NCBI GenBank assembly: GCA_027064945.1 | Contig: JAMOPB010000237.1 | Coordinates: 1-45,632, forward strand | Source of the DNA: Candidatus Cloacimonadota bacterium | GTDB lineage: Bacteria > Cloacimonadota > Cloacimonadia > Cloacimonadales > TCS61 | DNA: 45,632 bases | Direction of reading: 5' to 3' | Part shown: positions 8,074 to 45,011 of the stretch, in pieces | Layout: every line of letters begins with the position of its first letter | How positions within the stretch are numbered: position 1 is the stretch's first letter | Made by a program: the position numbers and the translations under genes | The notes under the pieces: generated by a model | The model's database searches: none | Told to the model about the DNA's origin: nothing | What the model saw: only the letters and a program-made list of their open reading frames with translations

Positions 8074-8102
8074 ATTATATCAAGTTTTTGGGTTTAGATC
8101 AA
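8074..8102 (-). promoter_or_regulatory. sigma70/sigmaA-type promoter with extended -10 for 6864-8045
   Basis: The minus strand reads TTGATC-17 nt-TATAAT with TG one base upstream of the -10 (TGATATAAT). It lies about 28 nt upstream of ATG 8045, leaving room for the AAAGGA SD. Confidence 0.55.
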
Positions 8103-8248: not shown

Positions 8249-10507
8249 TTAATACCCCATTCCGTTTCCTTGTTCTTGAGGCATCATTGCTTGTTGTACT
8301 TGTTGTTGTATAGCTTGACTAGCTTGTAATTTTTCTTGATATTTATCACCTGCTTGTTTTACTGCATCCCAATCAATTATCTTAATAAAGCGTTTTAAAA
8401 TCCATACAGGATCAGTTGGCAAGTTAACAGAATTTAGTAAATTAATAATATTAGTTGCGCTTGATAATGTTGATTCTAAATGTTGTAATACGAGGACAAG
8501 CGGTGGGTTAAGTTTTATGTCTATATATCTTGAAAGCGTTGTAAATTCTGGCTCACGACCATTTAAAATGTATAACTGTTTAGTTACCGCGTTAACTAGT
8601 TCTTCGAGTGATTCATTAATAAATGTTTGAAATGTATCAATTTTTGTAGCAAAAATAATATTGACGTTTACTATCTGTTCTCTTAAATCATATGTGTCAG
8701 TTATACCGAGCATAGGTGACGGTATACCAGAAGCTGCGATTAAATCAGCTTTTAATGTGTCCAATTCATTCATTGGTAATGATCTGTCATGCATAGGCAT
8801 AATTTCTAAATCAACAAAACGTTTTCCGTCTTGCGAAATTGTTACAAAATCTTTATAGTCAGAAACCATTTGGCTGACATCTTTAAGTTTCATAATATCT
8901 TCAAAACTGATAGTTTGGTTTCTTAGCTCGCGTTTAAATTTTTCTATCAATTCGGCATGATTTTTGTGAGAACCTGCTTCGATTGTCCATTTACGAACAA
9001 TTGATGCACGATTCATTCTTGAAATAATGCTTGAAAGTAAGCCGATTAAATAAAGACGTGCCGGAAACAACACAGTATCGAAAATCGATGTTCCATATGG
9101 TGCATATTTATCGATCGGATTGGTAAAATTAACCATTTCATCAGCTGGCACATAGCGAATAGTTATTTTTGCGTAGTTTTCGTATAAATCATATAATAAT
9201 GATTTCAATGCATGGATTGTGTTTTCATCACTAATTAAATTGATTAATTCGTTTATTTTTGTAATTTTATGTTTATTTTTAATTTTTTTAAATACATTTT
9301 TTAACAATTCATCTAATTGATTTCCAGTTTCTGCATTTTTGTCTTCAAAATTCGAACCTGATTTACCAAAAGATTTTTGTATTGTGTCTACAAAATTATA
9401 CTTTTCAGTATTAGCTGATCCGTTTGAAGTTTTCTTGTCTGTCCCTTCAATAACTAAATAACCATATTTATTACCATTTTTTTCAAGTATGATAACATTT
9501 TCAGGTGTAACATATTTTAAGTTGATAAATTTGATTTTTGTTAAATCAAGAGATCTAATTCCTTCAATCATCTGATTTACTGAAATATTATCATTTATTT
9601 CTTCAAATAAAATTTGTGATTCAAAACTAAGATCACCTGATTTTTCCTCCATTAGCAAATTTATCTGTCTGTCGAAATCAAGTTCTGTTTTACTAATTGC
9701 TGTATTCAGTTCTTCCATTATAGATTCATAATATATATTTGAAAGGTCAAATTCCACATTAAGGCCGAGTTTATGTGAATTATAATTGATTTTAATATCT
9801 TCGAGTTTAGAATATTGTTCTGTCAATATTGCTAATGATCCTTTTTTATTTTCTATATCAGCAAACTTGTTTAAATTTATTACTTCAACAAAAAAGTTAC
9901 CTAGCACCAGTTGTTTAGGAAGTATATCATTTTTCAAACGTTTTTGAATATCAAAATAAGCAAAAATCATTTTTACAAGTTTTAACAATACTTGTTTGTC
10001 TGTATCAGCAACTGACTTATCTTGTTCAAGCATTTCGCTATATAAAATATCAATGAATTGTTTTGTATAAGGATTTTTAATCAAAATATTATCAAGATAT
10101 ACTTGTATCATTCTAGTTGCTATATATAATTCATATGGTAATTGAGAATATTGTTTATAGCGTTCTAGTCTTTCTTTTGGAATTGAAAGATTTTCAAACT
10201 GTGTTAAAATAGATTCATCGAGACCTTGTGCTCTCTCTTTAACATCTTCTTGTAAAGATTTAGATTCTTTTTTATCTTTATATACACCAGTTAAAGAACG
10301 TAAATTTATACTTTGTATATTATTTAAAAGCGTGTCGTCTTGAGTATTCATTTTTGTTAATAAATCCTCAAAGGCAGCGTCCAGAGTTTTATCTAGAATC
10401 CCGAGCTTTTTTACAGGATCCAATACATCGCCGCTGTTTTCTTGTTCTATGTTTTCTGTTTGATTTTGATTTTCTGGAATTCCATAGCTATCATCTGTAT
10501 AAGCCAT
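8249..10507 (-). CDS. portal protein (T4 gp20-like pattern)
   Basis: 752-aa ORF. PYGTSIFDTVLFPARLYLIGLLSSIISRMNRASIVRKWTIEAG matches the portal core pattern (YG.S.....R.....L......R..RA..R......G) recalled from gp20-type portals. It has a Q-rich C-terminal tail, and size and context fit. Confidence 0.65.
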   Translation of the reverse strand: MAYTDDSYGIPENQNQTENIEQENSGDVLDPVKKLGILDKTLDAAFEDLLTKMNTQDDTLLNNIQSINLRSLTGVYKDKKESKSLQEDVKERAQGLDESILTQFENLSIPKERLERYKQYSQLPYELYIATRMIQVYLDNILIKNPYTKQFIDILYSEMLEQDKSVADTDKQVLLKLVKMIFAYFDIQKRLKNDILPKQLVLGNFFVEVINLNKFADIENKKGSLAILTEQYSKLEDIKINYNSHKLGLNVEFDLSNIYYESIMEELNTAISKTELDFDRQINLLMEEKSGDLSFESQILFEEINDNISVNQMIEGIRSLDLTKIKFINLKYVTPENVIILEKNGNKYGYLVIEGTDKKTSNGSANTEKYNFVDTIQKSFGKSGSNFEDKNAETGNQLDELLKNVFKKIKNKHKITKINELINLISDENTIHALKSLLYDLYENYAKITIRYVPADEMVNFTNPIDKYAPYGTSIFDTVLFPARLYLIGLLSSIISRMNRASIVRKWTIEAGSHKNHAELIEKFKRELRNQTISFEDIMKLKDVSQMVSDYKDFVTISQDGKRFVDLEIMPMHDRSLPMNELDTLKADLIAASGIPSPMLGITDTYDLREQIVNVNIIFATKIDTFQTFINESLEELVNAVTKQLYILNGREPEFTTLSRYIDIKLNPPLVLVLQHLESTLSSATNIINLLNSVNLPTDPVWILKRFIKIIDWDAVKQAGDKYQEKLQASQAIQQQVQQAMMPQEQGNGMGY

Positions 10508-11019
10508 TAGCTACCCTTTTCTATTGTTTTAAGTATCTGATTTGCATTAAAAATATTTTTTGAATTTTTTATTTCATACGCGTTTATTTTATTATGAAAA
10601 TACTCTTTTAAATAAATATCCAGAGCGCGGCGATCAGAAAAATAGTTATTCATAAGAGATTTATATATTTGAGGATTTATACACGCCTTTACATCCGTTT
10701 CAAAATTTTCAAAGGTTTTAGACACTAGTGCTTTAGTTACCCCATCAGAACCTTGTGTTAAATACACAGGTAAAATATTTTTTTCAAACCAGTATATAAA
10801 TTTTAATTCACAAGTGTTAATAAATAAAGTAAATGCTTTTTCAAAGCTCATACCGGTATGATCTGTTTTAGAATTTAATTTCTTCAAATTGTTCTTCAGT
10901 TTGTTGTTTGTTATCTTCAACTGATAATTCTGTTTTATTAATATCAATATTACTGCTATCGCTGTTATCAGTGTTGCGTTTATCGGTTGCGCAATCCAAT
11001 ACATGATTTGATCCATCAT
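10507..11019 (-). CDS. N-terminally membrane-anchored hypothetical protein (170 aa)
   Basis: AAAGGAG lies 6 nt upstream of ATGATG at 11019. Hydrophobic helix LITAIAVILILI near the N-terminus. Its stop overlaps the portal ATG (TAATG). Confidence 0.5.
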   Translation of the reverse strand: MMDQIMYWIAQPINATLITAIAVILILIKQNYQLKITNNKLKNNLKKLNSKTDHTGMSFEKAFTLFINTCELKFIYWFEKNILPVYLTQGSDGVTKALVSKTFENFETDVKACINPQIYKSLMNNYFSDRRALDIYLKEYFHNKINAYEIKNSKNIFNANQILKTIEKGS

Positions 11020-11149
11020 CTGATTCTCCTTTAATATGAACAGGCCTTAAAGTGGTGTTTTCTTCATTATTTAAATCTAAATCATCATCTTTTCTAAACA
11101 CCAGATCTATAGTAATTTCAGAAAAGTTATCTACAACCAAATCTTCCAT
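10868..11149 (-). CDS. small acidic hypothetical protein (about 93 aa)
   Basis: ATG at 11149 with AAGGA 8 nt upstream (the ORF track starts it at a TTG at 11155). Overlaps the 5' part of 10507-11019 by 152 nt in another frame. Confidence 0.4.
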   Translation of the reverse strand: MEDLVVDNFSEITIDLVFRKDDDLDLNNEENTTLRPVHIKGESDDGSNHVLDCATDKRNTDNSDSSNIDINKTELSVEDNKQQTEEQFEEIKF

Positions 11150-11151
11150 TT

Positions 11152-12186
11152 TCAATATCCTTTTTTATATATATTTTCTACCACATTAGCAATTTCTTCT
11201 TTTGGTTCTAATGATTTCGCTATAGTTGCAGGAGTCTGGAACCACGCGTTTTTGTAGAATGTTGGTTCTTTAAGAGCTGTTAAAGCATCTTGTGCTAACG
11301 GCTGCAATGTTATTCTAACATTCACTGTTAATGGTTGTTGGTATATATTAAAATCAACATCAGTTCCACCGCGATCAAAATTTATATTTGTAATTCCTGC
11401 AAGTTTATAATGCCCCATTCCGTGAGCATCCACTTCGTAAATAAAAGGTGTGCTAAGATCCGTTCCTGTACGCGAAAGTGGGGAACTCATGATAAATATA
11501 ATGATTAGTGGTTCGATTATATATCTCCGAATTGATTTTGGATCACCGCTTGGACTAGTTAATTTTATGCTTAATTGTAAGATATCTTGGACACTAGTAT
11601 TCGTCCACATTTTAGGCATATGGATTCTGTATCCTGAAAAAGCATCAAGTGCTCCAAAAATATCATTAAGATCCATGTCGCCGTTATACTGGTTTCCTGA
11701 AAGCATTTTAAATATTGATGCCGCGTTTCCAGTTGTATTTATCGCTTTTGAAAACACGCCTTTTGTTTTAGTGTCAAGAAATGAAGTTACTAAATCTTTG
11801 ACTCCAGTAGCTCCTTGATCCAATATATTAGAATCGTAATTGTGCGATATGCTATTGTTGATCGCACTGTCTACTGTAGCCACTAATCTAATACCATCAT
11901 ATCCAGTGCTCGGATTATAGGTAGTTAAATATTCTTTATGATTTTCTATTACTTTATTAAACCATTTCATTGGGTGATCAGCATCCGCGTAAGTTAAAAC
12001 ATCATTCACAAATGTTTTCATATCGTTAACGCTTGTAATATTTAAACCTTTATTAAATTTAAGTGTTCTTGGATACAAGTCCACAAACGCAAGATGAGGA
12101 AGAAGTTTATCCTCATACGAATAGCGTTTATTTATATTTTTATTATATCCAGGAACTTTACCTATTGTAAAAAATTTTTTAGGCAT
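11152..12186 (-). CDS. hypothetical tail protein, possible tube-initiator/distal-tail type
   Basis: 344-aa ORF immediately downstream of the tape-measure-like gene. The C-terminal beta-rich segment (WTNTSVQDILQLSIKLTSPSG..FIYEVDAHGMGHYKLAGITNINFDRGG..LTVNVRITLQPL) is reminiscent of the tube fold. Weak. Confidence 0.3.
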   Translation of the reverse strand: MPKKFFTIGKVPGYNKNINKRYSYEDKLLPHLAFVDLYPRTLKFNKGLNITSVNDMKTFVNDVLTYADADHPMKWFNKVIENHKEYLTTYNPSTGYDGIRLVATVDSAINNSISHNYDSNILDQGATGVKDLVTSFLDTKTKGVFSKAINTTGNAASIFKMLSGNQYNGDMDLNDIFGALDAFSGYRIHMPKMWTNTSVQDILQLSIKLTSPSGDPKSIRRYIIEPLIIIFIMSSPLSRTGTDLSTPFIYEVDAHGMGHYKLAGITNINFDRGGTDVDFNIYQQPLTVNVRITLQPLAQDALTALKEPTFYKNAWFQTPATIAKSLEPKEEIANVVENIYKKGY

Positions 12187-12200
12187 TTATTATTCCTTTT

Positions 12201-15200
12201 TTAATGATCATGTAGTGGATGATTCACTTTTTCTTCTAACTTCTGTTTTGCTGCTTTAGCAACTTGTATAGTTGCTTGTACTTGTTTTTCATGACCAGCT
12301 GCTGATACGCCTATGAGTTGATCAAGTTTAATTAATATACCTTCTAATAATCCAGGTACATCATCTTTTGATATATTTGAAATTTTGTTTTTATCCATTT
12401 TAGATGTTAATACATTGATATTGGTGCGAGCACTTCGATCATTGGCGATCTGTTTGCCAATTTTTGCTTGATAAATATTTTGAAGATGTTGTTTAGTTTC
12501 ATTATCCCAATCATCAAATTCAATTAATTTCTTAATCTGCTCTTTATCTAAACGTTTAACCGCATCCCAATCTTTAATCTCGCTATTGCCAAACCAATTA
12601 TGATCAACAATACCTTTGTCTTCAAGTTCAGCAACTATGTCTGCAGCACTCATTCTAGCATGGCGCGCTAAAGCTGTTTTATTAATTTTTATATTTTTAT
12701 CAATTTTTCTAATTTGTTCGCGTTCAATTGTATTTTTTTGTTTTTTACGAATGTCAAGCAACATTTGGAGGCGCTTCTTATCTTCATCGCTCAAATTAAG
12801 TTTTAATAAAGATTTGATTTGTTCAGGTTTAAGTCTTTCAATTAGCGCCCAGTCTCTGATTTCACTTATTATAAAAGGCGCAGTGGAAAAACGAATTGCA
12901 GCTGCTCGTTCAAGTTGATAATAAAGTTTTTTATCTTTTGAATTGATTGAGCTAAATAATCCACCAAGTGTTAACACATCATCTAGAACAGCGTGTGTAA
13001 GACTAGTAGTTATAATGCCAGTATAATAACCAAATTTACCTTGTTTATTTTTATTTTCATTTATGCGTTGTTTTATTATCTTTTGATACTCTTTTTCATT
13101 TTTAATAATATCTTTCATTTGAGTATCTTTATTTACTCGTTGTCGAGTTTTTAAAGTTACAAGATTTTGTAAAAATTGTTTATCTTTATCATCCCAATCA
13201 TCAAAACTCAATAATTGTGTTAATTGTTCAAGAGGCAATTTAGCAATCGTTTTATAATCTTTTATTTGTGATTTACCGATCCAATTATATTCAATAATTC
13301 CTAGTTTGTCGAATTCCTCAATTAATTTTTTTTCGCGCCCGTATCCGTAGCTCATAATTCCACTGATACCTAGCGAAGCTACGGCTAACGGCCCACCACC
13401 TTTTATGAATTTAGTGCCATATTTTAATAATCCTCCAATGCTAAGACCACTAAGTGCGGTACCTAATAACGCACCAAGTGATGCGTCAGATCCACCTGCA
13501 GTAGCCGTATTTCCGCCTCTTGTTATTAATGTTTTTAGACCATCTAAACTGAAAAATTTAACAAGTTTATTGGTATTCATCATAATTTTTTTCAAAAATG
13601 AATTTTGTAAAACTTCTGCATCTATAATATCATTTTCTTTGGCTTCTTTAATACCTTCAAGAGTATTGTCTGCAGATATCAATGCAGTTGGTTTTCGTCG
13701 AACTGGATATTTAACACTAAATATTTCTTTTCCTCTATTAATCAACTCGTCCGCTAGATATTTAGCACCTAGTTTTAAACTCTCTTCATTAATCGTAACA
13801 CAGCTACAGTATTCAGCTGCGTTTTTATTTTTAATTTTAACATGATCTTTTAAGATTGCAGCTGCTGGTATTCCTTCTTCATAATCGACATTTCCAAACG
13901 TATGTCTAATTCTAAGAAGTTTAGCTGCATCTATACTATTTTCAGTAATTTTTTTAATATCTTGTGGGGTTTTAATTCCACCAAGAAATTCTTCAGTAAA
14001 CAGCGGCCTGTACATCATTTCAGTGGCAAACTGCCAACCAGACTCTGCTGTTAGTTTTTCTTTTTCATAGAGATATTTGAAACCTTCTGCAACCCCTTTA
14101 ATTAGATCATCTTCATCATTTCCTTTACGACTTCCTTTTTTAAAACCATATTTTATAACATCAGCAAATCTAGCCCACGCTTTTTTAGTTTCAAAAGCAT
14201 TTTCTTTAGCTTTTTCTACGATTGCTTTCATAGCGCTTTGCATAAATTCTTTTGCTTCTTCTTCTGTTTCTAATTTACCAGTGTATTTATTCATAGTACG
14301 TGTAACACGAGCGCGTGGTTTTTCAATTAATCCATATCCTGTTAATGCTTGTGATAAATTAGCAGTATTTATCATAGTAGCATGTGTGAATAAGGCCACA
14401 TTTGCTAAATGATGAATCATCAAATCAAATTGATCTGGCATTGTAGTAGTGGCATATCTATAATAAAGCTGCTGATCTTCGAGTTTTTCGAGGCCTACTT
14501 CCTTCATAAGAGCAGTTATTTCTTTTTCCATCTGCTCTTGATATCTGAGCTTAGCTTTCTGTTCCAAGCCCATACGATTCTCATTTGCCAATATTCTGAA
14601 TACCGGTAACTTTAATAAAGCTTTATTGGTTTTTTCAATTATTGGCTCCATTAATCTTTCAAAAAATGATGTTTCTCTTCGAATATCAAAGCCTTCGGCC
14701 ATTTTGTTAAACATTTCATCGTGATAACGATATACATGTGGCCCACCAAGTAAATTTAAGAAGAAATTACCGATACCACTCATTTTACCGCCGCGACCGG
14801 CAACCCATTGTGCTCCAAGTGCTGCAACATTACGCGCACCACCTAGCATCATTCTAAGCATTTCGAAAAATGGTATTTTATTTGACAACCAATCTAGTAT
14901 ACCACCTTTTTCATTATCTGGTTTTCCGATTACATTATATTTAACAGGTTCTTTAATTCCATATCCGCGCGTACGGATTGTAGCCACCTCAACGGCGGTC
15001 ATTCTAGTAAATTCATATATTCCTGATAATAATCCAATTTGTGCATCTTCAAAAGTTCTAGCTCGTGAAAGAACACCTTGAGAATCTTCTGTAATACTAT
15101 AATACATATTAATATAAGACTCTTCTTCGCCGATACCTAGGCGCTTAGCAAACAATGCGGCTTTTCTCTGTTCAACTGTTTGAAAAGCTTTATCGAATTT

Positions 15201-16340
15201 TTTCATTTCCTCTTTAATATTACCACCGCTCATTACTATTTGCAACTGCTTAATGAGATCTAAACCAATCGCGGCTTTATTCAAAAATGATCCAAATTCA
15301 GTTGCTGCAAGTCCAAGATTTTCAGCAAAAGAATGCGCAAATTGTCCATGTTCCATACGTTCTGCATGTTTACCGATTACAGTAGCGTATTCTTTACCTT
15401 TATAAAATGTTGCTAGTTTGCCTAGGTTTCTGTTATAAGTACTCGCAGATGATATATTTTTACCAATAATATTGTTAACAAATTCTGAAGTTAAAATAGG
15501 GATTGAACTTGTGTAAGAAGCGATTCTAGCCAACATATTAAGTTGTGCCAAATCAACAATATTAATATGTTCGCCTTTCGGATCTAAAGCATACAATTGA
15601 TTAATTAATTGATTTGTTTCATGCATCGGTTCTTGATTAACAAACTCAGATGCAGCGTGCATTTTCGCATCAATTGTAATAGGGCGTAATTTACGCACTT
15701 GTTTGTGAGATATACCAGCTCCAGTTAACTTGCTAGCTAAAGTAGAAGTTAATTTACCTAAAAGCGGCATAGCCATCGCAATAACTGGTCCTGCAAGTAT
15801 GCTTCCAAGTACTTGGCTTCCTGTTAAAGCAGCTGCTGTGCCAGCTATCTTGTTTGCTGCTCCCATTGAAAGCGCATACATAGGGTTAATATATTGAAGT
15901 GTGCCAAATAAATGTTTTAATCCTCCAGCTTGAGATGCGATATTCGCAGCACCGCTTCCTAGAGATTTAAGAAATTGATTTTGTATCCCTGCACTTTGTA
16001 ATAAATTTACTCCGCTTGAAACTGTGCCTGCTAAATATTGAGGCATCATAGCAAGCATATAATTATTAGCCATAGCTCTCTGAAATTCAGCAGCACCTTT
16101 TAATGTAGTACCACCAGCTGCTCTAACTTGAGTAATTTTTCCTTCATTAATATTACCAGTACGAAAAGCTTCCCATTGCTCAGCAAGCCGCTGTGCTTCT
16201 TCTTCGCGTTTCTTAGATTGATAACGAGCAGTTTGTTGTTCATATTTGATTTTATTTTGCACTCCGCGTAAAGAACTTTGTGCTCCTTTTGCTTGTAGAT
16301 AAGTCATAAATGCCATTAAAGCAGGGTTAATAGGATTCAT
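12201..16340 (-). CDS. tape-measure-like / ejection-type giant virion protein (1379 aa)
   Basis: Longest ORF in the window. It has Gly/Ala-rich hydrophobic stretches (residues ~100-210 and ~920-980), long helical regions and a threefold internal ~55-aa repeat near the C-terminus. First gene after array L. Confidence 0.45.
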   Translation of the reverse strand: MNPINPALMAFMTYLQAKGAQSSLRGVQNKIKYEQQTARYQSKKREEEAQRLAEQWEAFRTGNINEGKITQVRAAGGTTLKGAAEFQRAMANNYMLAMMPQYLAGTVSSGVNLLQSAGIQNQFLKSLGSGAANIASQAGGLKHLFGTLQYINPMYALSMGAANKIAGTAAALTGSQVLGSILAGPVIAMAMPLLGKLTSTLASKLTGAGISHKQVRKLRPITIDAKMHAASEFVNQEPMHETNQLINQLYALDPKGEHINIVDLAQLNMLARIASYTSSIPILTSEFVNNIIGKNISSASTYNRNLGKLATFYKGKEYATVIGKHAERMEHGQFAHSFAENLGLAATEFGSFLNKAAIGLDLIKQLQIVMSGGNIKEEMKKFDKAFQTVEQRKAALFAKRLGIGEEESYINMYYSITEDSQGVLSRARTFEDAQIGLLSGIYEFTRMTAVEVATIRTRGYGIKEPVKYNVIGKPDNEKGGILDWLSNKIPFFEMLRMMLGGARNVAALGAQWVAGRGGKMSGIGNFFLNLLGGPHVYRYHDEMFNKMAEGFDIRRETSFFERLMEPIIEKTNKALLKLPVFRILANENRMGLEQKAKLRYQEQMEKEITALMKEVGLEKLEDQQLYYRYATTTMPDQFDLMIHHLANVALFTHATMINTANLSQALTGYGLIEKPRARVTRTMNKYTGKLETEEEAKEFMQSAMKAIVEKAKENAFETKKAWARFADVIKYGFKKGSRKGNDEDDLIKGVAEGFKYLYEKEKLTAESGWQFATEMMYRPLFTEEFLGGIKTPQDIKKITENSIDAAKLLRIRHTFGNVDYEEGIPAAAILKDHVKIKNKNAAEYCSCVTINEESLKLGAKYLADELINRGKEIFSVKYPVRRKPTALISADNTLEGIKEAKENDIIDAEVLQNSFLKKIMMNTNKLVKFFSLDGLKTLITRGGNTATAGGSDASLGALLGTALSGLSIGGLLKYGTKFIKGGGPLAVASLGISGIMSYGYGREKKLIEEFDKLGIIEYNWIGKSQIKDYKTIAKLPLEQLTQLLSFDDWDDKDKQFLQNLVTLKTRQRVNKDTQMKDIIKNEKEYQKIIKQRINENKNKQGKFGYYTGIITTSLTHAVLDDVLTLGGLFSSINSKDKKLYYQLERAAAIRFSTAPFIISEIRDWALIERLKPEQIKSLLKLNLSDEDKKRLQMLLDIRKKQKNTIEREQIRKIDKNIKINKTALARHARMSAADIVAELEDKGIVDHNWFGNSEIKDWDAVKRLDKEQIKKLIEFDDWDNETKQHLQNIYQAKIGKQIANDRSARTNINVLTSKMDKNKISNISKDDVPGLLEGILIKLDQLIGVSAAGHEKQVQATIQVAKAAKQKLEEKVNHPLHDH

Positions 16341-16405
16341 ATAACAACCTTTATTAGTTGATTTGTAGCTATTGCTTTGGGTTTAAATGAAGTACACAAA
16401 ATTTT

Positions 16406-16917
16406 AAAATAACAACCTTTCTAATAGCTTGTTGCAGTTGACTGTACCTAGATGCAGAAAAACTTTTTTAGTCTGCGCGAACCGGTCTGGACGGTTCACT
16501 GCGAATTGTTTTCTAGTTAATAGAAAATAGTAACCTTTCTAATATTATGTTACAGTTGGCAGAACCTAGATGCAGAAAAACTTTTTTAGTCTGCGCAAAC
16601 CGGTTTGATCCCTAGAAACTTTTTTCTAGTAAATAGAAAATAGTAACCTTTCTAATACTATGTTACAGTTGGCAGAACCTAGATGCAGAAAAACTTTTTT
16701 CTAGAGATCATCTCGGTCTGATCTCATTGTTGCGATGAAGTCGCAACAATGAGACGGCCTGTTAGATAACTTCCTTTTAGAAGTTATCTAACCAGTCTGA
16801 TCCCTAGAAACTTTTTTCTAGTTAATAGAAAATAGTAACCTTTCTAATGTTATGTTACAGTTGGCAGAACCTAGATGCAAAAAAACTTTTTTAGTTCGCG
16901 CGAACCGGTCTGGACGG
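16406..16917 (-). repeat. tandem array L: 4 copies of a ~113-118-bp unit (one expanded to 192 bp), reverse complement of array R
   Basis: Core aacctttctaat-NNNN-tgttacagttggcagaacctagatgcagaaaaactttttt begins at 16414, 16532, 16645 and 16837. A degenerate partial copy at 16341-16362 abuts the ATG of 12201-16340. Confidence 0.95.
16722..16792. repeat. double-hairpin module (copy in array L)
   Basis: tctcattgttgcga-tgaag-tcgcaacaatgaga (14-bp stem) followed by gttagataacttcc-tttt-agaagttatctaac (13/14 bp). Confidence 0.9.
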
Positions 16918-16988
16918 TAAAACTTTTTTAATTAATAAATATATTTAATTTTCTTAACAAACCTATAGACTATAAAACAGGAGCGCAC

Positions 16989-18773
16989 ATGCAACTAGAT
17001 AATCTAAGTTATGAAGTGCAGGAATATATGAAATGCAAATATAATCCGTTGTACTATATCGAAAATTATGTTAAGATTCCTACACAAGGTGGGCCAGTTC
17101 TGATATCAGAGGCTGGTCTCTGGAAAAAAACAAACAAATATAGACTTGCTATCAAATCTGCTTGGAAATTCAGAAAAGTAATTTTATTGTTTCCTAGACA
17201 GACTGGTAAAACAACGTTGAATGACGCAATTTTATCTCACACTTTGAATTTTTACGAAGGTATCCAAGCGGGGTTCGTATCGATTGATAAAAATAGAGTT
17301 ATGGATTTTATTAGACGATTACAATTTATTTACGACCATTTACCTGTGTTTTTAAAAACACCGCAAAAACGCTCGCTGTCAGATAGAGTAACGTATTTTA
17401 AATTATTAAACGGTTCTCAATTACACACAAGCGGAGTTTCTGGCAACGTTTCAGAATCAGAAGTATTCAGGGGTCTATCTTTAAGTAACTTGATAATAGA
17501 TGAGGCTGCATTTTTAAATATGAATGATTTGTTAACATCTGTTGGTCCAGCATATTCGAAAGCAAGTACAGAAGCAATCAAAGCAGGTAAACCAAGTGCA
17601 TTAATATTAACAACTACACCAAACGGCATTAATGATGGCGGTTTTTATAAAATTATGAGCAATGCAACTTCGATAGAAGAGTTGATAGTAGATCCAAAAG
17701 ATCCACTTTGTGATAAATTAAAATCTGACGAAGAATGTTTCGAAATCTTGAACCAAGAAGGACGTAACGGATATGTACTAGTAAAATTGAATTGGTGGGA
17801 AGTGTTTGATGATCAATGGTATAATCAACAGAAGCAATTATTAAACTTTGATAAAAGAAGAATTGCTCAAGAGATCGATCTTGTATTTTTAGGAAGCAGC
17901 ACATCGGTATTATCAGATGATGTTATTGCAAGAATGAAACCTGCTACACAATATACTGAAAAACAATTATTTAATAATATTAAAATTCATTTTTTCAATG
18001 ATCTTGATCCTGAACATGTGTATTTAATTGGAGTCGACGTAGCTGCATCCAGTGCAGATAGTCAAGCTGCCGATTATAGCGCGCTAGTTGTCTGGGATGC
18101 GACGTTAAATAGACAAGTTGCTGAATTAAAAGTACGAGAACCTGTGTTAAAAAATTATGGGTATGCGATAATTGAATTGATTAAATTTTTAATTAAAATT
18201 GTTAATATACCAGAATGGAATTTAAAATTGGTAATTGAAAGAAACTCGTTTGGATTAGGATTGATTGAACATTTACTATATGATCCAGACTGGGGTGACC
18301 TGATGGCTAGGATCTTGTATAAAAGTAAATTAAGAAATGATTTTGTATACGGGGTACAAGTAACCGCTGCTAATAGACCGCTTATTATTAACGCATTATT
18401 GCAGCTAGTAAACGAGAAGCCAGAATCTATTGTAGGCCCAGAATTAATTAAAGAATTACAAGTTTTAGAACAGAAAAGTAATGGAAGAATCGAAGCAGCA
18501 CGCGGTTTTCATGACGACGTTGTATTCGCCGCTTCACATGCAGTTTATGCTAGAAAAGATTTGATTAAAAGAGGAGAACTCGAAGGAAACCCTGATGAAA
18601 ATTATGGTCCAAGAGTATCACTTGAGCAAATTTTAACAGTTGTTAAAACAGATGATAGTGAGGATGAGCAAGCTGAATTACAAGTAATTGAACATCGCAG
18701 TAATAATTTGGAAGCTGAAAAGAGGGATAGGCAGTTAGAAGTTGAAAAAGCAATATTAAGTATATTAAATTAA
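16989..18773 (+). CDS. terL: terminase large subunit
   Basis: Walker A LFPRQTGKTT, Walker B LIIDEAAF, RNaseH-like nuclease motifs GVDVAASSADSQAADYSALVVWD and GFHDDVVFA. 594 aa. AGGAG SD 6 nt before the ATG. Confidence 0.9.
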   Translation: MQLDNLSYEVQEYMKCKYNPLYYIENYVKIPTQGGPVLISEAGLWKKTNKYRLAIKSAWKFRKVILLFPRQTGKTTLNDAILSHTLNFYEGIQAGFVSIDKNRVMDFIRRLQFIYDHLPVFLKTPQKRSLSDRVTYFKLLNGSQLHTSGVSGNVSESEVFRGLSLSNLIIDEAAFLNMNDLLTSVGPAYSKASTEAIKAGKPSALILTTTPNGINDGGFYKIMSNATSIEELIVDPKDPLCDKLKSDEECFEILNQEGRNGYVLVKLNWWEVFDDQWYNQQKQLLNFDKRRIAQEIDLVFLGSSTSVLSDDVIARMKPATQYTEKQLFNNIKIHFFNDLDPEHVYLIGVDVAASSADSQAADYSALVVWDATLNRQVAELKVREPVLKNYGYAIIELIKFLIKIVNIPEWNLKLVIERNSFGLGLIEHLLYDPDWGDLMARILYKSKLRNDFVYGVQVTAANRPLIINALLQLVNEKPESIVGPELIKELQVLEQKSNGRIEAARGFHDDVVFAASHAVYARKDLIKRGELEGNPDENYGPRVSLEQILTVVKTDDSEDEQAELQVIEHRSNNLEAEKRDRQLEVEKAILSILN

Positions 18774-19456: not shown

Positions 19457-19520
19457 TATTAAATCCTTTTTGTAATTTTATACAGTTATTTGGGCATAGA
19501 TTTCTAAATGCGCAGTTGCT

Positions 19521-25705: not shown

Positions 25706-25837
25706 TAATTTTTCCTTTGCAAAGGGTTTTAGTTCAAGACTTTGGGTTTTGACTTCAATGAACTTTGGTGTTGGAAACAGTTTTTAGTAGCTGTATTTCA
25801 TATATCTCTTTTAAAATTTCAATAAAAAGTTCTTTGA

Positions 25838-25848
25838 GATAGATATTA
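25838..25848 (+). promoter_or_regulatory. GATAGATATTA motif (candidate phage promoter element), instance 1
   Basis: agatagatattaaatagaaaaaataaaa, 25 nt upstream of ATG 25874 and about 55 nt upstream of the hairpin cluster. Confidence 0.35.
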
Positions 25849-25873
25849 AATAGAAAAAATAAAAGGAGAAAGA

Positions 25874-26210: not shown

Positions 26211-26764
26211 TATATTTCATATCCATCTTTAAAAGTTTGTTCAAGAATTGATTTGACAAGCGCGTTGTCTGTTGCCTTAGCTGATTCCTGATCGGAAGAA
26301 CCACTACTAACAAGAGCAGTAGCCTCTTCGAATTTCTTAAGAACTTCAAGAAATTTATTTTCATCAGCCGCGGTTTCTGTAGATTTTTTCCATCTGAGAT
26401 AATTGCTGAGTTTATCATTTTGGAGTTTACTTTTTTGATTAACGTAATCCTGTATTAACTTTTCATATTTGATAATTGTATCTGTTACGATTTGCTGTAT
26501 TTCAAGTTGTTTAGAAATAGCTATCTGCAGCTGCGAACGAAGCTTATAATTTTTACTATCGGTAGCTTCAAGCTGTGAATAATTTGTATAAATAAATTTA
26601 TCTAACATTTTCTCTTTATCACGTAAATTTTTAATACGTGTTTCGAGCTCAGCTATTTTATCGTCAATTTCTTGATATATTTTATCAACTTCGTTGTCTA
26701 TTTTACTATAATCAACTACAACTTCGACCTCTTTAATTTTAGCACTCATCATGTACCTTTTCAA
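26210..26764 (-). CDS. coiled-coil hypothetical protein (184 aa)
   Basis: ORF with heptad-like K/E/Q-rich sequence. It overlaps the upstream gene by 26 nt and is followed by a strong terminator. Confidence 0.5.
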   Translation of the reverse strand: MKRYMMSAKIKEVEVVVDYSKIDNEVDKIYQEIDDKIAELETRIKNLRDKEKMLDKFIYTNYSQLEATDSKNYKLRSQLQIAISKQLEIQQIVTDTIIKYEKLIQDYVNQKSKLQNDKLSNYLRWKKSTETAADENKFLEVLKKFEEATALVSSGSSDQESAKATDNALVKSILEQTFKDGYEI

Positions 26765-28304
26765 GTTCTCTAATAGCTTTTAAAGCTATATTATCAATTT
26801 CCGCAACTGTTCTTTCCATATCAGTTTCGGGTATTTCGCCCCACTGATTGATATAATGTTCAGGATTAACAGCACGCAGCATGTCATTTTTCATTTTATT
26901 ATAGAACACCTGTGCGGTTTTTTCGTGCTCGAAAAATTTTTGTAACGCAGCAATCATGCGATCCGCATATAGAGAATCGAAATATTTTTTAATAGCTTGA
27001 TAATTTTTCTTAGATTTGTATTTACTTGAATAAGTAAATCCGTTAGCTAATTCATCTTCGCTGTTTTTTAATTGTGAACCTATTAATGTATACATATACA
27101 TATTATCGAGGATAGAATATTTCGGATTCATAAAATAAAAGAAATCAAGTTGATTCATTTCTCCGAGGTACTTAAACATTTCTAAAATATCGTGATTTGG
27201 TTTTAATTTGCGTTTATTTCTATTTTTAAATACATTTGCTAATGCTTCTGCTATCATTTGCTGCTTATTGTATGCGAAATGAGTTCTTTCGCCTTCCTCA
27301 AACATATATTGAACTGCAGCTACATAACCTATTTTAACTTTTGTAATGTCAGCAGACAATAGTGAAATTATGTTTCTATGGATAAGTGATATGTATGTAG
27401 ACATTAGTGCGCGAAGCTCTAATGGATTCCTATTTTTAATTGCTATTAATATCAAATAACGCACTATTGTGTTGAGCATTACATACATATCGCTAAGTTG
27501 CAATTCATAAATAAATTTCGAAAGACGCGAACTTTTTGCGTGATATTTTTTCATCCATGATAATGTGATTGAAATAATAGTATTTGCAAATGCTTTCATC
27601 TGCGGATGATTAGAAAGAATATTTGTGATTTCTTTGTTATATAATTCAATTGCGATTTTTTGTTTGTTATAACCTACTAACTCATCTTTATATTTTTTAA
27701 TAAATTCACGAGCAATTTTTTCTAAATTTTTAAGTAAATAATGCCACGTAATTAAAGTTACTTTATCGATACCTGCGTCGTCTACCGTTAATCCAACATG
27801 AATATCAAGATTGTTTAATACTTCTTTTTTATCGTCAGGCATATCAGGATCAGATTTGAATTCTGCCTCTACAAATTCATTAATTTTTTCTTTTACCCAG
27901 TCGACAAGATTTTGAAAAAAATCAATATCGAATTGTAGATCTTCATTTTTACCCAGTGCGCCAGAAACTATTTTATCATGGTTTTCTTCATTGTGAAATG
28001 TTTTTATTTGCTCAATAAAATGATTGTCGAAAATTTCGTCTATATTATACTTGTTCATAAATTCTTCGATAATTTCTTCAACTCGTTCTGGTGCAACAGG
28101 TATTTTACGTTCTCTTTTGTCATCAAGAGACATTTTTGCTTTAAACGCTTTTATTCTCTGTTCTTCTTTAAGTTCTTCTTCAGTAGGTTCATGTTTAGTG
28201 TCGTCTGTTTCTACTTCGACCACTTGGTCGCGTACATCATCATCTTGTATATCATCTGTTACTATACCGTTTTTCTCGATAAGATTTTCAATAATATCTG
28301 CCAT
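26739..28304 (-). CDS. hypothetical protein (521 aa)
   Basis: GAAAGGTAAAGA-ATG start. GATAGATATTA motif 52 nt upstream. N-terminus MADIIENLIE. Confidence 0.55.
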   Translation of the reverse strand: MADIIENLIEKNGIVTDDIQDDDVRDQVVEVETDDTKHEPTEEELKEEQRIKAFKAKMSLDDKRERKIPVAPERVEEIIEEFMNKYNIDEIFDNHFIEQIKTFHNEENHDKIVSGALGKNEDLQFDIDFFQNLVDWVKEKINEFVEAEFKSDPDMPDDKKEVLNNLDIHVGLTVDDAGIDKVTLITWHYLLKNLEKIAREFIKKYKDELVGYNKQKIAIELYNKEITNILSNHPQMKAFANTIISITLSWMKKYHAKSSRLSKFIYELQLSDMYVMLNTIVRYLILIAIKNRNPLELRALMSTYISLIHRNIISLLSADITKVKIGYVAAVQYMFEEGERTHFAYNKQQMIAEALANVFKNRNKRKLKPNHDILEMFKYLGEMNQLDFFYFMNPKYSILDNMYMYTLIGSQLKNSEDELANGFTYSSKYKSKKNYQAIKKYFDSLYADRMIAALQKFFEHEKTAQVFYNKMKNDMLRAVNPEHYINQWGEIPETDMERTVAEIDNIALKAIRELEKVHDEC

Positions 28305-28466: not shown

Positions 28467-29180
28467 ATGAGTTCTCTAATTAATTGGAATAACACAATTG
28501 ATTTTATTAAAATTCAACTCGGAGCTGATGTTAATCAACTCGAAGTTGATGAATACAAAATACTTGATATTATTAAAACTGTCACTATGCCTGAGTTTTG
28601 CCAATATTTTAATTATATAGACAGAATAGATTATCCGAGTGATAAAATAGAATTAGTAACAGAGGCTGAACACAAGCATCGTTATAAAATTATAAATTAT
28701 GAGCGTCAGATATATGAGATTAAAAATGTTTATTTTCCGTCCAACTGGACTGTAGCATATACTGTTTTTGATCAAATTGATGCAACTTCAGCAGCCGTTT
28801 CTAATTATACATATAGTATGGCAGATTCCATGACACCAGTAAGATCATTTCAATTTTTTAGACCAGATATAATTGAATTAACAATACCAATCGGATATTC
28901 AGAGCCTAGTTATTTTACAGTTGAACTTGGCGCTGAATTCTTAAATCCAAATGAAATCGAACCTTCAATGTATTCTGCTTTCAAAAAATTAGCTGCTGCC
29001 GATGTAATTGATTATGTACTATCTTTAAGATCTAAATTTGAACAATTAACTACTCCACAGGGCACTATCAATATGAACTTAAATAGATTAGAGCAAAAAG
29101 CTGAAAGATTGAGATCTGAAGCAATGCAAAAACTCGAAAATACTCAGCCAGATGTGCTCTGGGCATGGGTAAATTCATGA
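28467..29180 (+). CDS. hypothetical virion/baseplate-module protein (237 aa)
   Basis: First gene of the plus-strand operon that contains the spike. AAAAAGGA SD. Confidence 0.5.
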   Translation: MSSLINWNNTIDFIKIQLGADVNQLEVDEYKILDIIKTVTMPEFCQYFNYIDRIDYPSDKIELVTEAEHKHRYKIINYERQIYEIKNVYFPSNWTVAYTVFDQIDATSAAVSNYTYSMADSMTPVRSFQFFRPDIIELTIPIGYSEPSYFTVELGAEFLNPNEIEPSMYSAFKKLAAADVIDYVLSLRSKFEQLTTPQGTINMNLNRLEQKAERLRSEAMQKLENTQPDVLWAWVNS

Positions 29181-39183: not shown

Positions 39184-39199
39184 TGCTAATCATTGGGGC
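39184..39199 (-). promoter_or_regulatory. GCCCCAATSATTAGCA element upstream of 38247-39146
   Basis: The minus strand reads gaaGCCCCAATGATTAGCAttttaaataaaaggcaattgatcaaaggacgaagactATG. Confidence 0.35.
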
Positions 39200-39235: not shown

Positions 39236-39383
39236 GAAAACAATTCACAGTGAACCGTCCAGACCGGGATGATATCTAGAAAAAAGTTTTTCTGCATCTA
39301 GGTTCTGCCAACTGTAACAAGCTATTAGAAAGGTTGTTATTTTAAAACAACAAACTGAAAAACTAGTTTGGTCGTCTAGACTA

Positions 39384-39454
39384 GTTAGATAACTTCCTTT
39401 TGGAAGTTATCTAACAGGCCATCTCATTGTTACGACTTCATCGTAACAATGAGA
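39384..39454. repeat. double-hairpin module (array R copy 1)
   Basis: gttagataacttcc-tttt-ggaagttatctaac and tctcattgttAcga-cttca-tcgTaacaatgaga, both perfect 14-bp stems. Confidence 0.9.
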
Positions 39455-39696
39455 TCAGACCGGGATGATACCTAGAAAAAAGTTTTTCTGCATCTAGGTT
39501 CTGCCAACTGTAACAAGCTATTAGAAAGGTTGTTATTTTAAAACAGTAAACTGAAAAACTAATTTGGATGATCAGACCGGGATGATACCTAGAAAAAAGT
39601 TTTTCTGCATCTAGGTTCTGCCAACTGTAACAAGCTATTAGAAAGGTTGTTATTTTAAAACTGCAAACTGAAAAACTAGTTTGGACGATCAGACTA

Positions 39697-39767
39697 GTTA
39701 GATAACTTCCAAAAGGAAGTTATCTAACAGGCCGTCTCATTGTTGCGACTTCATCGCAACAATGAGA
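39697..39767. repeat. double-hairpin module (array R copy 2)
   Basis: gttagataacttcc-aaaa-ggaagttatctaac and tctcattgttGcga-cttca-tcgCaacaatgaga. Flanked by 8-nt direct repeats gatcagac at 39687-39694 and 39766-39773. Confidence 0.9.
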
Positions 39768-40056
39768 TCAGACCGGGATGATATCTAGAAAAAAGTTTTT
39801 CTGCATCTAGGTTCTGCCAACTGTAACAAGCTATTAGAAAGGTTGTTATTTTAAAACTGCAAACTGAAAAACTAGTTTGGACGATCAGACCGGGATGATA
39901 TCTAGAAAAAAGTTTTTCTGCATCTAGGTTCTGCCAACTGTAACAAGCTATTAGAAAGGTTGATTTTTAATATCAGATAATTTGTCAAATTTAAAAAAGA
40001 ACTGGGAGAAAATAAACACCAATTTCTATATATTCTTTAATAATTAAAATAAGTTA

Positions 40057-40067: not shown

Positions 40068-40113
40068 TAATAAGAAAAATAAAAAAATAAATAAAATAAA
40101 TAAAATAATTTTG

Positions 40114-40208
40114 CCTCGAAGCTGGTTACAGAGCCTAGGGGCTGGGAGAGAGGCGACCGCGCGGCGCGTACTCTCTCAGTCTCGCGGGCTGCTGAGCCAG
40201 CTTCGAGG
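40114..40208 (+). other. 95-nt GC-rich rod-like hairpin in the 5' leader of the plus-strand block (processing site, attenuator or ncRNA candidate)
   Basis: Outer stem cctcgaagctgg/ccagcttcgagg (12 bp). Inner stem ctg..gagagag (40142-40152)/ctctctcag (40171-40179). A-rich tract upstream and ttatttatttttt downstream. Confidence 0.7.
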
Positions 40209-40240
40209 GATCGTTATTTATTTTTTAAAGGAGAAAAAAA

Positions 40241-40372
40241 ATGAAAATTAAAAAACGCGATTGGAATATCGTAGCCATAGCTCGTGGCGAAATTAATGCA
40301 CGCCCAAAAGTAGTGCATTCTAAGAAAAAATATTCACGCAAATTAAAACATAAAAAGCGTGAATATTTCTAA
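40241..40372 (+). CDS. 43-aa highly basic peptide (MKIKKRDWNIVAIARGEINARPKVVHSKKKYSRKLKHKKREYF), speculative ArfA-like tail
   Basis: Not in the ORF track because it is under 60 aa. AAAGGAG 8 nt upstream of ATG 40241. The C-terminal K/R tail resembles KGKGSYxRKxKH of ArfA-type ribosome rescue factors (from memory). Internal 7-bp hairpin at 40295-40319. Confidence 0.4.
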   Translation: MKIKKRDWNIVAIARGEINARPKVVHSKKKYSRKLKHKKREYF

Positions 40373-41295: not shown

Positions 41296-42636
41296 ATGAG
41301 TTTAAAAATTGATTTTTCCCTTTACGAGATCGATCTTCCTGTAGTGACTTCTTCCAAAATTTTTGCAAATAATAAAAATGAGTATCATGAAGAAGGATTA
41401 TATTCGCAGAAAATATTTGGACCGGTTAAAAATTACGAATGCAAATGTGGTAAGTTAAAAGGTAAATATTATGCAGGTCAAAGATGTGAAGATTGCGGAG
41501 TGCTTTGTGATAGTAATGATTTGCGAATGAAAACATTTGCGCAAATAAATTTACCATCTGATATCTGGGTTGTATTTCCACCTTTAAAACATGTGTTACA
41601 TAAGATCTTTAGCAAAAGAGCAGTTGATAAGATCATGACTTTTGATCCGCATGTGTATGAAGTACATGACTATTTTATATACGATTTAAATGATGCAACT
41701 CTTGTTAATGTGAATAATTTGATAAATGAGGATGAAATTAAAGCAAAAATTTCAGATCAAGCAAAAGAAGAACTGAATATTGATGAACTAGAAAAACTGA
41801 GAGCAGAATTTGTTAATAAATGGGTTTCTGAAAATCTTAATCCAGAGAGGTACTTAATTGATTTTAAAATTTATTCTATAATAAATCTGAAACATTTATT
41901 TGACTATTTGTATGAAAATCATTGGGAAATATTTGAGAAGAAACAAGTTGGTAATCGCGATATAGTTAAATTTGCTTTTGTGAATAAAATACCAGTGACT
42001 CCACCAGATACAAGACCTGTTATTAAGATAGCAAAAAACAGATTTAGTGTTAATGATATTACTAAATCCTATAGTGAAATTTTGAAAAATCTTGAACATA
42101 AATTCATGGATGATATTTATTTACAGATACAAGATGAAACCGAGCGTAATATATATCTTGCAAATGCTGCTAAAAAATTCCAGCGTTCAGTTGACGATAT
42201 TTATAAATTCGCACAAGAAAATCAGCTAGGCGATAAAGAATCCATTTTAAGAAACTCTATTCTTGGAAAAACAGTTGAATTTAGTGGAAGAACTGTCGTA
42301 ACATGCGGTGCAAATGTTCCACCTTATATGATCTCAATTCCTAGAGAATCTGCAAAAGTATTGTTTATTCTCGAAGTGCTAAATTATCTTGTAAATAATG
42401 ATAATGATATTTTAGATATTGATGATATTGCTTCTTTAATGCAATTAATTACGAACAACATTGAGGATGCAGAATTAAAAATTGATGATGATGTATTTGA
42501 TGAAATTTATCAGAAAATTAGACCGCAGCTGCGTGTTATGTTTGAAAGACCTCCAACATTGTTTATGTATAATGACAGCACATTTATTCTAGATGAGCTA
42601 TTTGAAAATAAATTTAAAATGAAGGAAGAACTATGA
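41296..42636 (+). CDS. phage multisubunit RNA polymerase beta-prime, N-terminal half
   Basis: IFGPVKNYECKCGKLKGKYYAGQRCEDCGVLC (beta-prime zinc motif), IPVTPPDTRPV, LRNSILGKTVEFSGRTVV (NLLGKRVDYSGRSV equivalent). It ends at ERPPTLFMYNDSTFILDELFENK ([22 protein letters not shown] equivalent). Confidence 0.9.
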   Translation: MSLKIDFSLYEIDLPVVTSSKIFANNKNEYHEEGLYSQKIFGPVKNYECKCGKLKGKYYAGQRCEDCGVLCDSNDLRMKTFAQINLPSDIWVVFPPLKHVLHKIFSKRAVDKIMTFDPHVYEVHDYFIYDLNDATLVNVNNLINEDEIKAKISDQAKEELNIDELEKLRAEFVNKWVSENLNPERYLIDFKIYSIINLKHLFDYLYENHWEIFEKKQVGNRDIVKFAFVNKIPVTPPDTRPVIKIAKNRFSVNDITKSYSEILKNLEHKFMDDIYLQIQDETERNIYLANAAKKFQRSVDDIYKFAQENQLGDKESILRNSILGKTVEFSGRTVVTCGANVPPYMISIPRESAKVLFILEVLNYLVNNDNDILDIDDIASLMQLITNNIEDAELKIDDDVFDEIYQKIRPQLRVMFERPPTLFMYNDSTFILDELFENKFKMKEEL

Positions 42637-43016: not shown

Positions 43017-45011
43017 TTGAAAAAGCAAATACAAACAATCGCAATAAACCCGATGATCGCAAGAAACTATAACGTGGATTTTGACGGCGACGGTATGGGG
43101 ATTACAAATCTCCAATCCGAGCAGGCCAAAAGAGATTTTTATAAATTGTTTATCGCAAATCATGTGAAATTATATTTTGATCCTGATACATACATTCCAG
43201 AGCTAACACATGAAGCTGTTTACAGCTTGTGGGCAGTTACTCATAAAATATCTGAGAATAACTGGCAACAGCGTGCTCCAATCACTGAATTTGAAAATTT
43301 TAAAAGTGTAAAAATTCGCACGTCAAATATAAAAAAATCTATTTTGGAACCTGTGTACGTTAAGAGTGTCGATACAACGATGCCTTGGTTTTGGGCACTA
43401 GTGCACAAAACTATTTATCAATGGGGGTCAGGCAAATTAGCAACTGAGAACGGCGGCGACGGTAAAGAAAAAATACTTTTTGACATTCATAAAGTATATA
43501 ATAAAAAAGCAATTAAAGAGATGTTTGATGCAATTTTTGATATCTCTGTTTCGAATATCGATTTTATGAACAGAATTTGGAAATTGAATCAATTTTTAAA
43601 TGAATTATCAAGTATTTACGATATAGCAATTCCTTCATTTGAAGCTGATGATTTTGTGGTTAGTTCAGAACAGATCGAAGAATTTAAAAAGAATTTCGTA
43701 ACTGAACCAGTGATCGGATTTCATCAGAACATGTATTTATTCTACAAAATGGTCTTACCTTATTTAGAAAACTATAAAAACGGTAATAATATTCTTTATA
43801 AAGTTTTTAAATCAGGTTCAAGACTTAAAGCTGTACAATTAATGAAATCAACTGCAAGTAGCGGTATACCGACTGATATTTATGGTCGCGCAATTAATAG
43901 AAATGTTGCAACATCTCTTTTGGAATCATTAAAGCCGGATGAAATGTTTGATTTAGCAAACGGTGCAAGAATGGCGCTTGCAGCACGTGAGACATTGATT
44001 CCTGCATCGGGCGAAATGCAAAGAATCATTATGAACAGTATCGGATTTATTATGTTGGATCAAACAGTTGAGGATTGTGGATGCGAACATGGTTTTAAGA
44101 TCAAAGTAAAAGATGAAAAGCATTTGAGATCACTACAGAAACGTATCATGGTGGATGGCCATGTTATAGATCCTGAAAAAGACAAACATCTGATAGGTCA
44201 AACTATTGAGATTTTTTCACCAATGACTTGCAAACTGGATGGTTTTAAGATTTGTAAAAAATGTTGGGGGCATTATTTACCGCCTGCTGATAAAAATGGT
44301 ATCAGTTATGTAGGTACTTTGGCAGCAAGTGCAGTTGTTGAACAATTATTACAATCAAGTTTAAGATTGCACCACACAGGTGGTACGTGGGAAATGGAAA
44401 CATTGTATAATGAAATTTTTGATATGATGGATCGCGGTGTAAAATTTTGGAGTGAAGAAAACGACGAAGGTGAGCCAATTACCTATACTGATGCTAATGA
44501 GAATGATTTGAATACATTAAAGGAAATTATGATTCCTAGATATTACGCAGAAGACGAAATCGAGTTCATAGAAGTTGAAAAAGGAAAAATCGCAATTGTT
44601 CCACATGTAAAACTACAAAACCAAGATGCTTCAAGAATATTAAGAGAGTTTGCTACATTAGTGTATGGTAAGCGTGAATTAAATGCAAGTAAAGAAAAAC
44701 ATGAGTTAATAGCTCCTGAAGTATTTTATGAAAAAATTGTGGATATAGTGTTTGAAGGTGCATATTTGCTATCTAACTATATAGAAGTGATAATGAGCGC
44801 ATTATTTTATGATGAAAATATGGAATCTATCAGATACAGTGGACGACCGCCTGTATATCAAACACCATTAAAATCCGTCATACACACTATAGATCCTAAA
44901 TTATCTATTTTTTATAAATTAAGTAATAATGCTCTTAAAAACATTTATCAAGGTGAAAGCAGATATGAGCTAGATCATATGATGTATAAATTAATGAATT
45001 GTTATAGATAA
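43017..45011 (+). CDS. phage multisubunit RNA polymerase beta-prime, C-terminal half (catalytic DFDGD)
   Basis: TTG start after [29 protein letters not shown] equals [39 protein letters not shown] (bridge-helix region). [25 protein letters not shown] (trigger-loop pattern). Confidence 0.9.
   Translation: [664 protein letters not shown]

Follow-up and report, generated by a model that had tools for sequence, protein, structure and literature searches.

Jumbo phages that encode their own multisubunit RNA polymerases have middle and late promoters that are computationally elusive and known for very few of them. A described case is AR9, whose non-virion RNA polymerase uses late promoters (PMC5312081, PMC7598289, PMC9209446) with the consensus AACA-N6-T-A/G, the final base being the start site (PMC5312081; also PMC7598289). 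AR9-type recognition involves a five-subunit phage polymerase with a gp226-like specificity subunit, acting on uracil-containing DNA. The stretch of DNA analysed here (the window: one entire contig of 45.6 kb, C237, from a fragmented bin) is phage DNA, and it carries two arrays of an intergenic repeat unit that recalls these promoters in two respects: 34 of the 36 distinct units in this phage and a sister phage have the bipartite form of AACA, 6 variable nt and TA, and the phage has a split beta-prime subunit whose C-terminal half is closest to the AR9 non-virion polymerase chain. In AR9 single short sites with the motif stand ahead of the majority of late genes (at 94 of 118 non-early start sites), whereas here it is not enriched outside the arrays, lies inside a conserved block of at least 68 nt and is arranged in tandem.

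Two kinds of repeats in T4-related phages also invite comparison. The repeat regions of the Campylobacter group II phages CP21, CP220 and CPt10 resemble the present arrays in having tandem units at module borders with a short conserved core (PMC4546147). In both cases close relatives have units in different numbers and orientations, assemblies break at the repeats, lone units lie at other places in the genome, and the phages are large and T4-related (PMC4546147). The Campylobacter units measure 72-86 bp (PMC4546147) against 113-118 here; the CP21 core AAACTTAAAGCAA is absent from our arrays (one match with 1 mismatch lies inside a gene, with 0.54 expected); and our arrays have 2-5 units, enclose no genes and are themselves inverted, with no whole-module inversion seen. 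The PeSL cassettes of T4-type phages are likewise repeated intergenic cassettes, of stem-loop plus promoter, that act as recombination points; they are single composite units of a terminator and a host sigma-70 early promoter, flanking small accessory genes (PMC2839356, PMC4122927). The units described here stand in tandem before large gene blocks, neither array contains a terminator-like site, and sigma-70-type promoter sites in the arrays are at chance level (3 versus 2.6 expected, and 5 versus 5.1 expected).

The phage, its polymerase genes and the two arrays

The genes and repeats on which the analysis turns are the following.

12201-16340, minus strand: gene of 1379 aa, called "tape-measure-like" in the first-pass annotation; PHROG and Pfam gave nothing for its product
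16386-16929, minus strand: array L, four units spaced 118, 113 and 192 nt
16404-16469, 16520-16587, 16633-16700 and 16825-16892, minus strand: conserved cores of array L
16422, 16540, 16653 and 16845, minus strand: putative +1 A of the array L units, placed by the AR9 register
16701-16790, minus strand: optional twin-hairpin insert that separates units 3 and 4 in array L
16989-18773, plus strand: large terminase subunit of the T4 gp17 type, by homology
39257-39976, plus strand: array R, five units spaced 196, 117, 196 and 117 nt
39260-39271, no strand: example of the CARACCGGTYTG-like 12-bp near-palindrome, the opening site of a unit
39280-39346, 39476-39542, 39593-39659, 39789-39855 and 39906-39972, plus strand: cores of array R
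39327, 39523, 39640, 39836 and 39953, plus strand: putative +1 A of the array R units, by the same register
39687-39773, plus strand: twin-hairpin insert with two perfect stems of 14-15 bp (fold of -43.4 kcal/mol, z = -10.8)
41296-42636, plus strand: N-terminal half of RNA polymerase beta-prime, by homology
43017-45011, plus strand: C-terminal half of RNA polymerase beta-prime, by homology and solved structures

Pieces of a multisubunit RNA polymerase lie at 41296-42636, 43017-45011 and 91-1704. The first two divide beta-prime between them. Among solved structures the top match of 43017-45011 is the AR9 non-virion RNA polymerase chain 7S00_D (E = 1e-11), and it is also closest to the AR9 gene annotated as a non-virion subunit. 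There is no close cultivated phage (terminase identity is at most 26%), and no DNA similar to the window was found in a phage collection. The head protease of T4 gp21 type was found only in relative L002.

The terminase is the sole plus-strand gene between minus-strand blocks on both sides, and thus inverted relative to both. A lone inverted terminase gene is also seen in L002, L004, L017, L018 and L019. In the more distant relative L005 the terminase (9960-11717) is co-directional with its neighbours, and a homologue of the giant tail gene follows directly after it.

A second twin-hairpin copy of array R lies near 39375-39460. In the second stem of these inserts (39375-39460 and 39687-39773 in the window, about 9850-9930 in L004) perfect pairing is kept via compensating changes: within the window the stem reads TTACGA/TCGTAA or TTGCGA/TCGCAA, and between the window and the sister phage TCTCATTG.../...CAATGAGA or TGTCAATG.../...CATTGACA.

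Composition, spread and conservation of the unit

Each unit is a cassette of about 115 nt in which a near-palindrome, a AAAAAAGTTTT tract, a bipartite core, one of two palindrome-rich tails and an optional twin-hairpin insert follow one another in this order, and units are mosaics of alternative modules. The 12-bp near-palindrome CARACCGGTYTG around ACCGGT opens every unit, and the core consists of AACTGTAACA, 6 variable nt and TAG(A/T)AAGGTT. Units are rich in short palindromes (CTAG, GATC, CCGG, GATATC and ACTAGT): the arrays have 21 CTAG and 6.2 CCGG per kb, whereas other parts of the window have 2.5 and 0.7 per kb, a difference of about 8 times for both words.

The core recurs on another contig of the window phage (C493, which is IMG/VR record 3300026512_000058), and more copies lie on ten contigs, all from one metagenome. 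In total, two hydrothermal-vent phages hold at least 36 distinct copies, 14 of them in the window phage. Contigs were assigned to type A, the window phage (the window, C493, L008, L009 and L011), or to type B, its sister phage (L004, L007, L010, L012, L013, L014 and L016). Beyond these two phages, searches of viral, metagenome and genome collections with core patterns returned only chance matches inside unrelated genes, and an nhmmer profile of the core gave no significant solo copies. All copies are intergenic and form tandem arrays of 2-5 units, with at least five array sites per phage; units are alike within a genome, and they are placed between a terminator or divergent gene start and the next gene. 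The arrays break assemblies, and most copies lie at contig ends.

In the window, every one of the nine units has AACA-N6-TAGAAAGG (0.39 expected); the four of array L carry it on the minus strand and the five of array R on the plus strand. The first-pass annotation had described AACA and TTAGAAAGG as invariant around four variable nucleotides. The variable 4-mers (agct, taat, tagt and taac) are as it gave them, and the invariance holds for the nine window units in the form AACA-N6-TAGAAAGG, but not across the family: on C493 two copies have AACT and one has TTAGAAAAG, and the sister phage reads CATAGTAAGG. Across the 36 distinct units, AAAAAAGTTTT, GCA, CT, GG, AACTG, AAC, TA, AA and GT are invariant, and the block AACTGTAAC has zero variation. 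AACA is found in 34 units (the other two have AACT), G follows TA in 35, and, in sequence terms, TA stands at the 6-nt spacing in all 36. The sole block that also varies within a phage is this spacer of 6 nt from AACA to TA.

The first-pass annotation had pointed to AR9 late promoters, with the consensus as AACA-N6-TW. The actual consensus is AACA-N6-T-A/G (PMC5312081), and all window units fit the corrected form as well. We estimate the chance of one AACA-N6-TR on a given strand of a 68-nt AT-rich block at about 6%, so that the nine fitting copies count as one event and not as nine. To our knowledge, a conserved block of this length, at least 68 nt, far exceeds any described jumbo-phage promoter, which argues against a promoter reading.

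We nevertheless lean, tentatively and with somewhat less than even confidence, toward the reading that the units are tandemly amplified, recombination-prone promoter/operator cassettes for a phage polymerase, uniform within each genome and moved or flipped at their own palindromes. On this reading, one of the phage's own multisubunit RNA polymerases would use the core as its promoter, and the register would be that of AR9 late promoters, with AACA at -11 to -8 and TA at -1/+1. The near-palindrome, which looks suited to a dimeric DNA-binding protein, may be the site of a regulator, and the short palindromes within the unit could offer a route to inversion by recombination.

The direction of the arrays relative to genes bears on this reading. 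Between divergent genes any orientation faces some gene, so arrays L and R are uninformative on direction. In five tandem settings (C493 at 22.9 kb, L008 into C493, L009 into L011, L007 and L016) a gene and its intrinsic terminator are followed by a co-directional array, and the next gene, visible in three of them, is co-directional too. In the sixth tandem setting (L010) the array faces the 3' end of the neighbouring gene, which speaks against a promoter. Co-direction in 5 of 6 settings is not significant, and orthologous sites are not independent.

The gene start beside array L and words upstream of other genes

Three short sites around array L enter the comparison with the neighbouring genes.

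16341-16352, minus strand: AAAGGTTGTTAT, abutting the ATG of 12201-16340 on its 5' side; five units have the identical segment after their putative start site
16376-16381, minus strand: CCCAAA word, 41 nt upstream of the same ATG, between array L and the gene
16956-16968, plus strand: solo AACAAACCTATAG (AACA-N6-TAG), a motif facing the terminase, with its first base 33 nt before the terminase ATG

The minus strand at the start of 12201-16340 reads ctaataaaggttgttatATG. According to the first-pass annotation, every unit ends in a copy of this gene start, and the units look like duplicated promoter-plus-leader modules. A unit segment does abut the ATG: AAAGGTTGTTAT adjoins it and recurs in five of the nine units, which makes six occurrences in the window (0.03 expected), and at 16341-16352 it spans the ribosome-binding site AAAGG and a 7-nt spacer. 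The shared ending, GGTTGTTAT, is likewise found in five of nine units, but three units of array L have GGTTACTAT and the last unit of array R has GGTTGATTT. The copy is not the end of the unit, since the repeat continues for about 45 nt past it. As for the further similarity of about 18 nt, we recovered a gapped 23-nt alignment with 19 matches, but shuffles score as well in 32 of 3000 cases (p ~0.011); without gaps, one other among 46 gene-upstream stretches reaches an equal score by chance. The 12-nt match to the gene start is marginal and is weak evidence.

The sister phage helps to interpret this match. At the gene start it reads AAAGGTTTGCACATG and the 12-nt match is absent; the type B tail gene begins AAAAAGGTTTGCACATG, so the identity is lost in type B. 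The CCCAAA word at 16376-16381 is kept in the sister phage (L004) and lies outside the repeat unit. The tail gene's own element is therefore absent from the units, which means that they are not copies of its promoter plus leader. The position of this CCCAAA between the array and the tail-gene ATG also argues against a simple promoter reading of the units. In type B, where the array points to the terminase, it is the terminase leader that matches the type B unit (GCTATTTTAAAA, gapped; 29 of 3000 shuffles, p ~0.01), and the gene on the far side of the array has no such leader match in either phage. Because the leader match is mirrored in both phages, it suggests an array end blending into the leader of the gene that it faces, either through decay of the last unit or as a patch of conversion. 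The 12-nt identity is a feature local to the window phage, most simply a decayed end unit or conversion patch, and is no sign that 12201-16340 was the source of the units.

That the 12-mer spans the ribosome-binding site of the neighbouring gene would also fit tandem small-RNA genes or a structured repeated leader, with AGAAAGG or the twin-hairpin parts acting as RNA; read from the other strand, such an RNA would be antisense to the ribosome-binding site of 12201-16340. The twin hairpins have very high stability (z = -10.8) and their pairing is kept by compensating changes between the phages, and a plain unit, folded as its sense strand, does slightly better than shuffled sequences (z = -2.1). 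We find this very improbable all the same: folding of the other strand of plain units is not significant (z = -0.9 and -0.45), the arrays lack terminator-like sites, the window has no Rfam family and no tRNA, and the 12-mer is lost in the sister phage.

A scan for AACA-N6-TR before other genes, proposed in the first-pass annotation, gave no enrichment (4 of 64 upstream regions versus 4.35 in shuffles), and outside the arrays the motif has no upstream preference within the window. The top enriched upstream word is instead CCCAA(A), present in 12 of 34 curated regions (0.95 expected) and located about 36-55 nt before the ATG. Its sites, in the form CCCAA(A/T), are these.

1736-1741, 8088-8093, 16376-16381, 19490-19495, 25742-25747 and 39194-39199, minus strand: CCCAA(A/T) in the window
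about 20130 in C493, about 3152 in L009, three sites in L002 and about 1371 in L018: the same upstream word elsewhere

The word stands before many block-leading genes, usually directly after an intrinsic terminator. It is a candidate for the core of an ordinary late promoter or leader. Enrichment is likewise seen for the unit word TAGAAA, which occurs on the sense strand of 9 of 30 non-array upstream regions, against 2.5 in shuffles (maximum 8 in 300), and on the antisense strand of 3 of the same 30. That CCCAA and TAGAAA are enriched while AACA-N6-TR is not argues against a simple promoter reading. The TAGAAA enrichment itself, the strict intergenic placement, the co-direction in 5 of 6 settings, the restriction of variation to the spacer and the AR9-like beta-prime all support a promoter-like one.

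Two other motif forms were tried and set aside. CCCA-N6-TR occurs in 4 upstream regions (0.51 expected), but as a general form it is weakly supported, the enrichment coming mostly from the CCCAAA word itself; and a loose regular expression for a CAAAGCTATAG-like word was dropped, with mostly coding matches. Types A and B (L004), L017 and L018 have a solo AACA-N6-TA site before the terminase, with spacers that differ, which favours a promoter-like reading, and such a site is absent there in L031, L034 and L035; being short, these solo sites rest on motif logic and carry no E-values.

Array orientation in the sister phage and repeats in wider relatives

At the compared array loci the flanking genes of types A and B share 76-85% DNA identity (up to 92% elsewhere), and units and flanks are both about 75-85% identical. 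Array orientation is inverted at 3 of 4 shared sites (between tail gene and terminase, beside the 39146 gene, and in L008 versus L010), with collinear flanks. The units had been described as "firing outward". In the window array L does point toward the minus-strand gene and array R toward the plus-strand genes, but with the arrays inverted in type B, the two that bracket the 22-kb block both point inward there. One array, between the homologues of 26739-28304 and 28467-29180, exists in type B only, with none in the window, and unit counts vary (3 in L004, 5 in L013). Cassettes are, in short, inverted, gained or lost between the two sister phages. Both the inversion at 3 of 4 shared sites and the array present in one phage only argue against a simple promoter reading. 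We also considered that arrays L and R might invert the 22 kb that they enclose; gene order is unchanged in the sister phage, where nothing but the arrays is turned round, so block inversion is not what separates the two phages.

Variation of unit number, orientation and presence between sister phages, mosaic units, broken assemblies and copies mostly at contig ends would be expected of functionless recombination-prone repeats, spread by slippage and recombination and serving as rearrangement breakpoints, and the Campylobacter group II repeat regions, which behave alike, are without assigned function (PMC4546147). We hold a lack of function to be quite unlikely here. AAAAAAGTTTT and AACTGTAAC are invariant in 36 copies despite about 20% divergence of the flanks, which indicates constraint on these core positions, and the copies are placed strictly between genes, after terminators.

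The terminase site of wider relatives shows a related pattern. L018, L031/L033 and L034 (about 80% terminase identity) have tandem arrays upstream of the terminase that are made of other unit sequences and are without this core; L034 shares with our units only the tail and the ACCGG site. These lineage-specific arrays lie at 1324-1856 in L018, 1-663 in L033 and 1-750 in L034, with periods of about 32, 42, 83 and 120 nt. Different arrays at one place upstream of the terminase point to a hotspot for fast-evolving repeats across the group. L002 (77% terminase identity) and L005 (54%) have no array at the terminase site. L002 has a single CAGACCGGTCTG palindrome before its terminase, flanked by two divergent CCCAA-type starts, and L017 has the near-palindrome site twice upstream of its terminase. 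Arrays at the same site without this core count against a promoter, as does the layout after array R, where 280 nt without genes and a very large GC hairpin precede the first ORF.

Another explanation is that the arrays are bound by a protein independently of orientation, as sites for a regulator acting to either side, as a packaging or terminase-recognition site, or as an origin- or partition-like element, with the AACA...TAG core as the binding site. We consider this possible, though on balance doubtful. It would account for the ACCGGT near-palindrome in every unit and upstream of the terminase in L002 (once) and L017 (twice), for the tolerance of orientation flips and copy-number changes, and for the density of CTAG and CCGG in the arrays, some 8 times that of other window DNA; lineage-specific arrays beside the terminase are what one expects of a site that co-evolves with its binding protein. 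However, the same units recur at no fewer than five dispersed sites, which mostly lie a long way from the terminase, the 5 of 6 co-directional bias and the spacer-type variation better suit a directional element, and no candidate binding protein was identified.

Returning to the promoter/operator cassettes that we prefer, one could go further and take the arrays as tandem strong promoters that serve a multisubunit RNA polymerase of the phage, have a -10/start element like that of AR9 in a lineage remote from it, and flip and move because they are built from palindromes. We think this unlikely. If it were true, the same boost of transcription would enter opposite operons in the sister phages: the tail block in one and the terminase in the other, or the polymerase block as against the head-internal block. 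Recombination would have rewired late expression in a way not known from jumbo phages. More generally, if the units are promoters, they would offer a long, highly conserved and easily testable template for the polymerase of an uncultured vent phage, and a natural experiment in which the same cassettes are oppositely directed in two sister phages. If they are not, the units would join the unexplained repeat regions of large T4-related phages, and the arrays would still mark sites of genome rearrangement and breaks in metagenome assemblies.

Two further intergenic elements were noticed. The very large GC-rich hairpin after array R (40113-40215, plus strand; -75.7 kcal/mol, z = -8.5) stands in an AT-rich spacer between the array and the polymerase gene block, and is followed by a U-rich run and then a very basic ORF of 40 aa (40241-40363); it has no second copy in the assembly and no Rfam match. 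The other is a second repeated element of about 70 nt, TCTCTTTTAAAATTTCAATAAAAAGTTCTTTGAGATAGATATTAAATAGAAAAA, at 25802-25868 in the window, 2034-2124 in L009 and 5632-5721 in L011. It ends right before the ribosome-binding site of small genes and, like the array units, contains TAGAAA.
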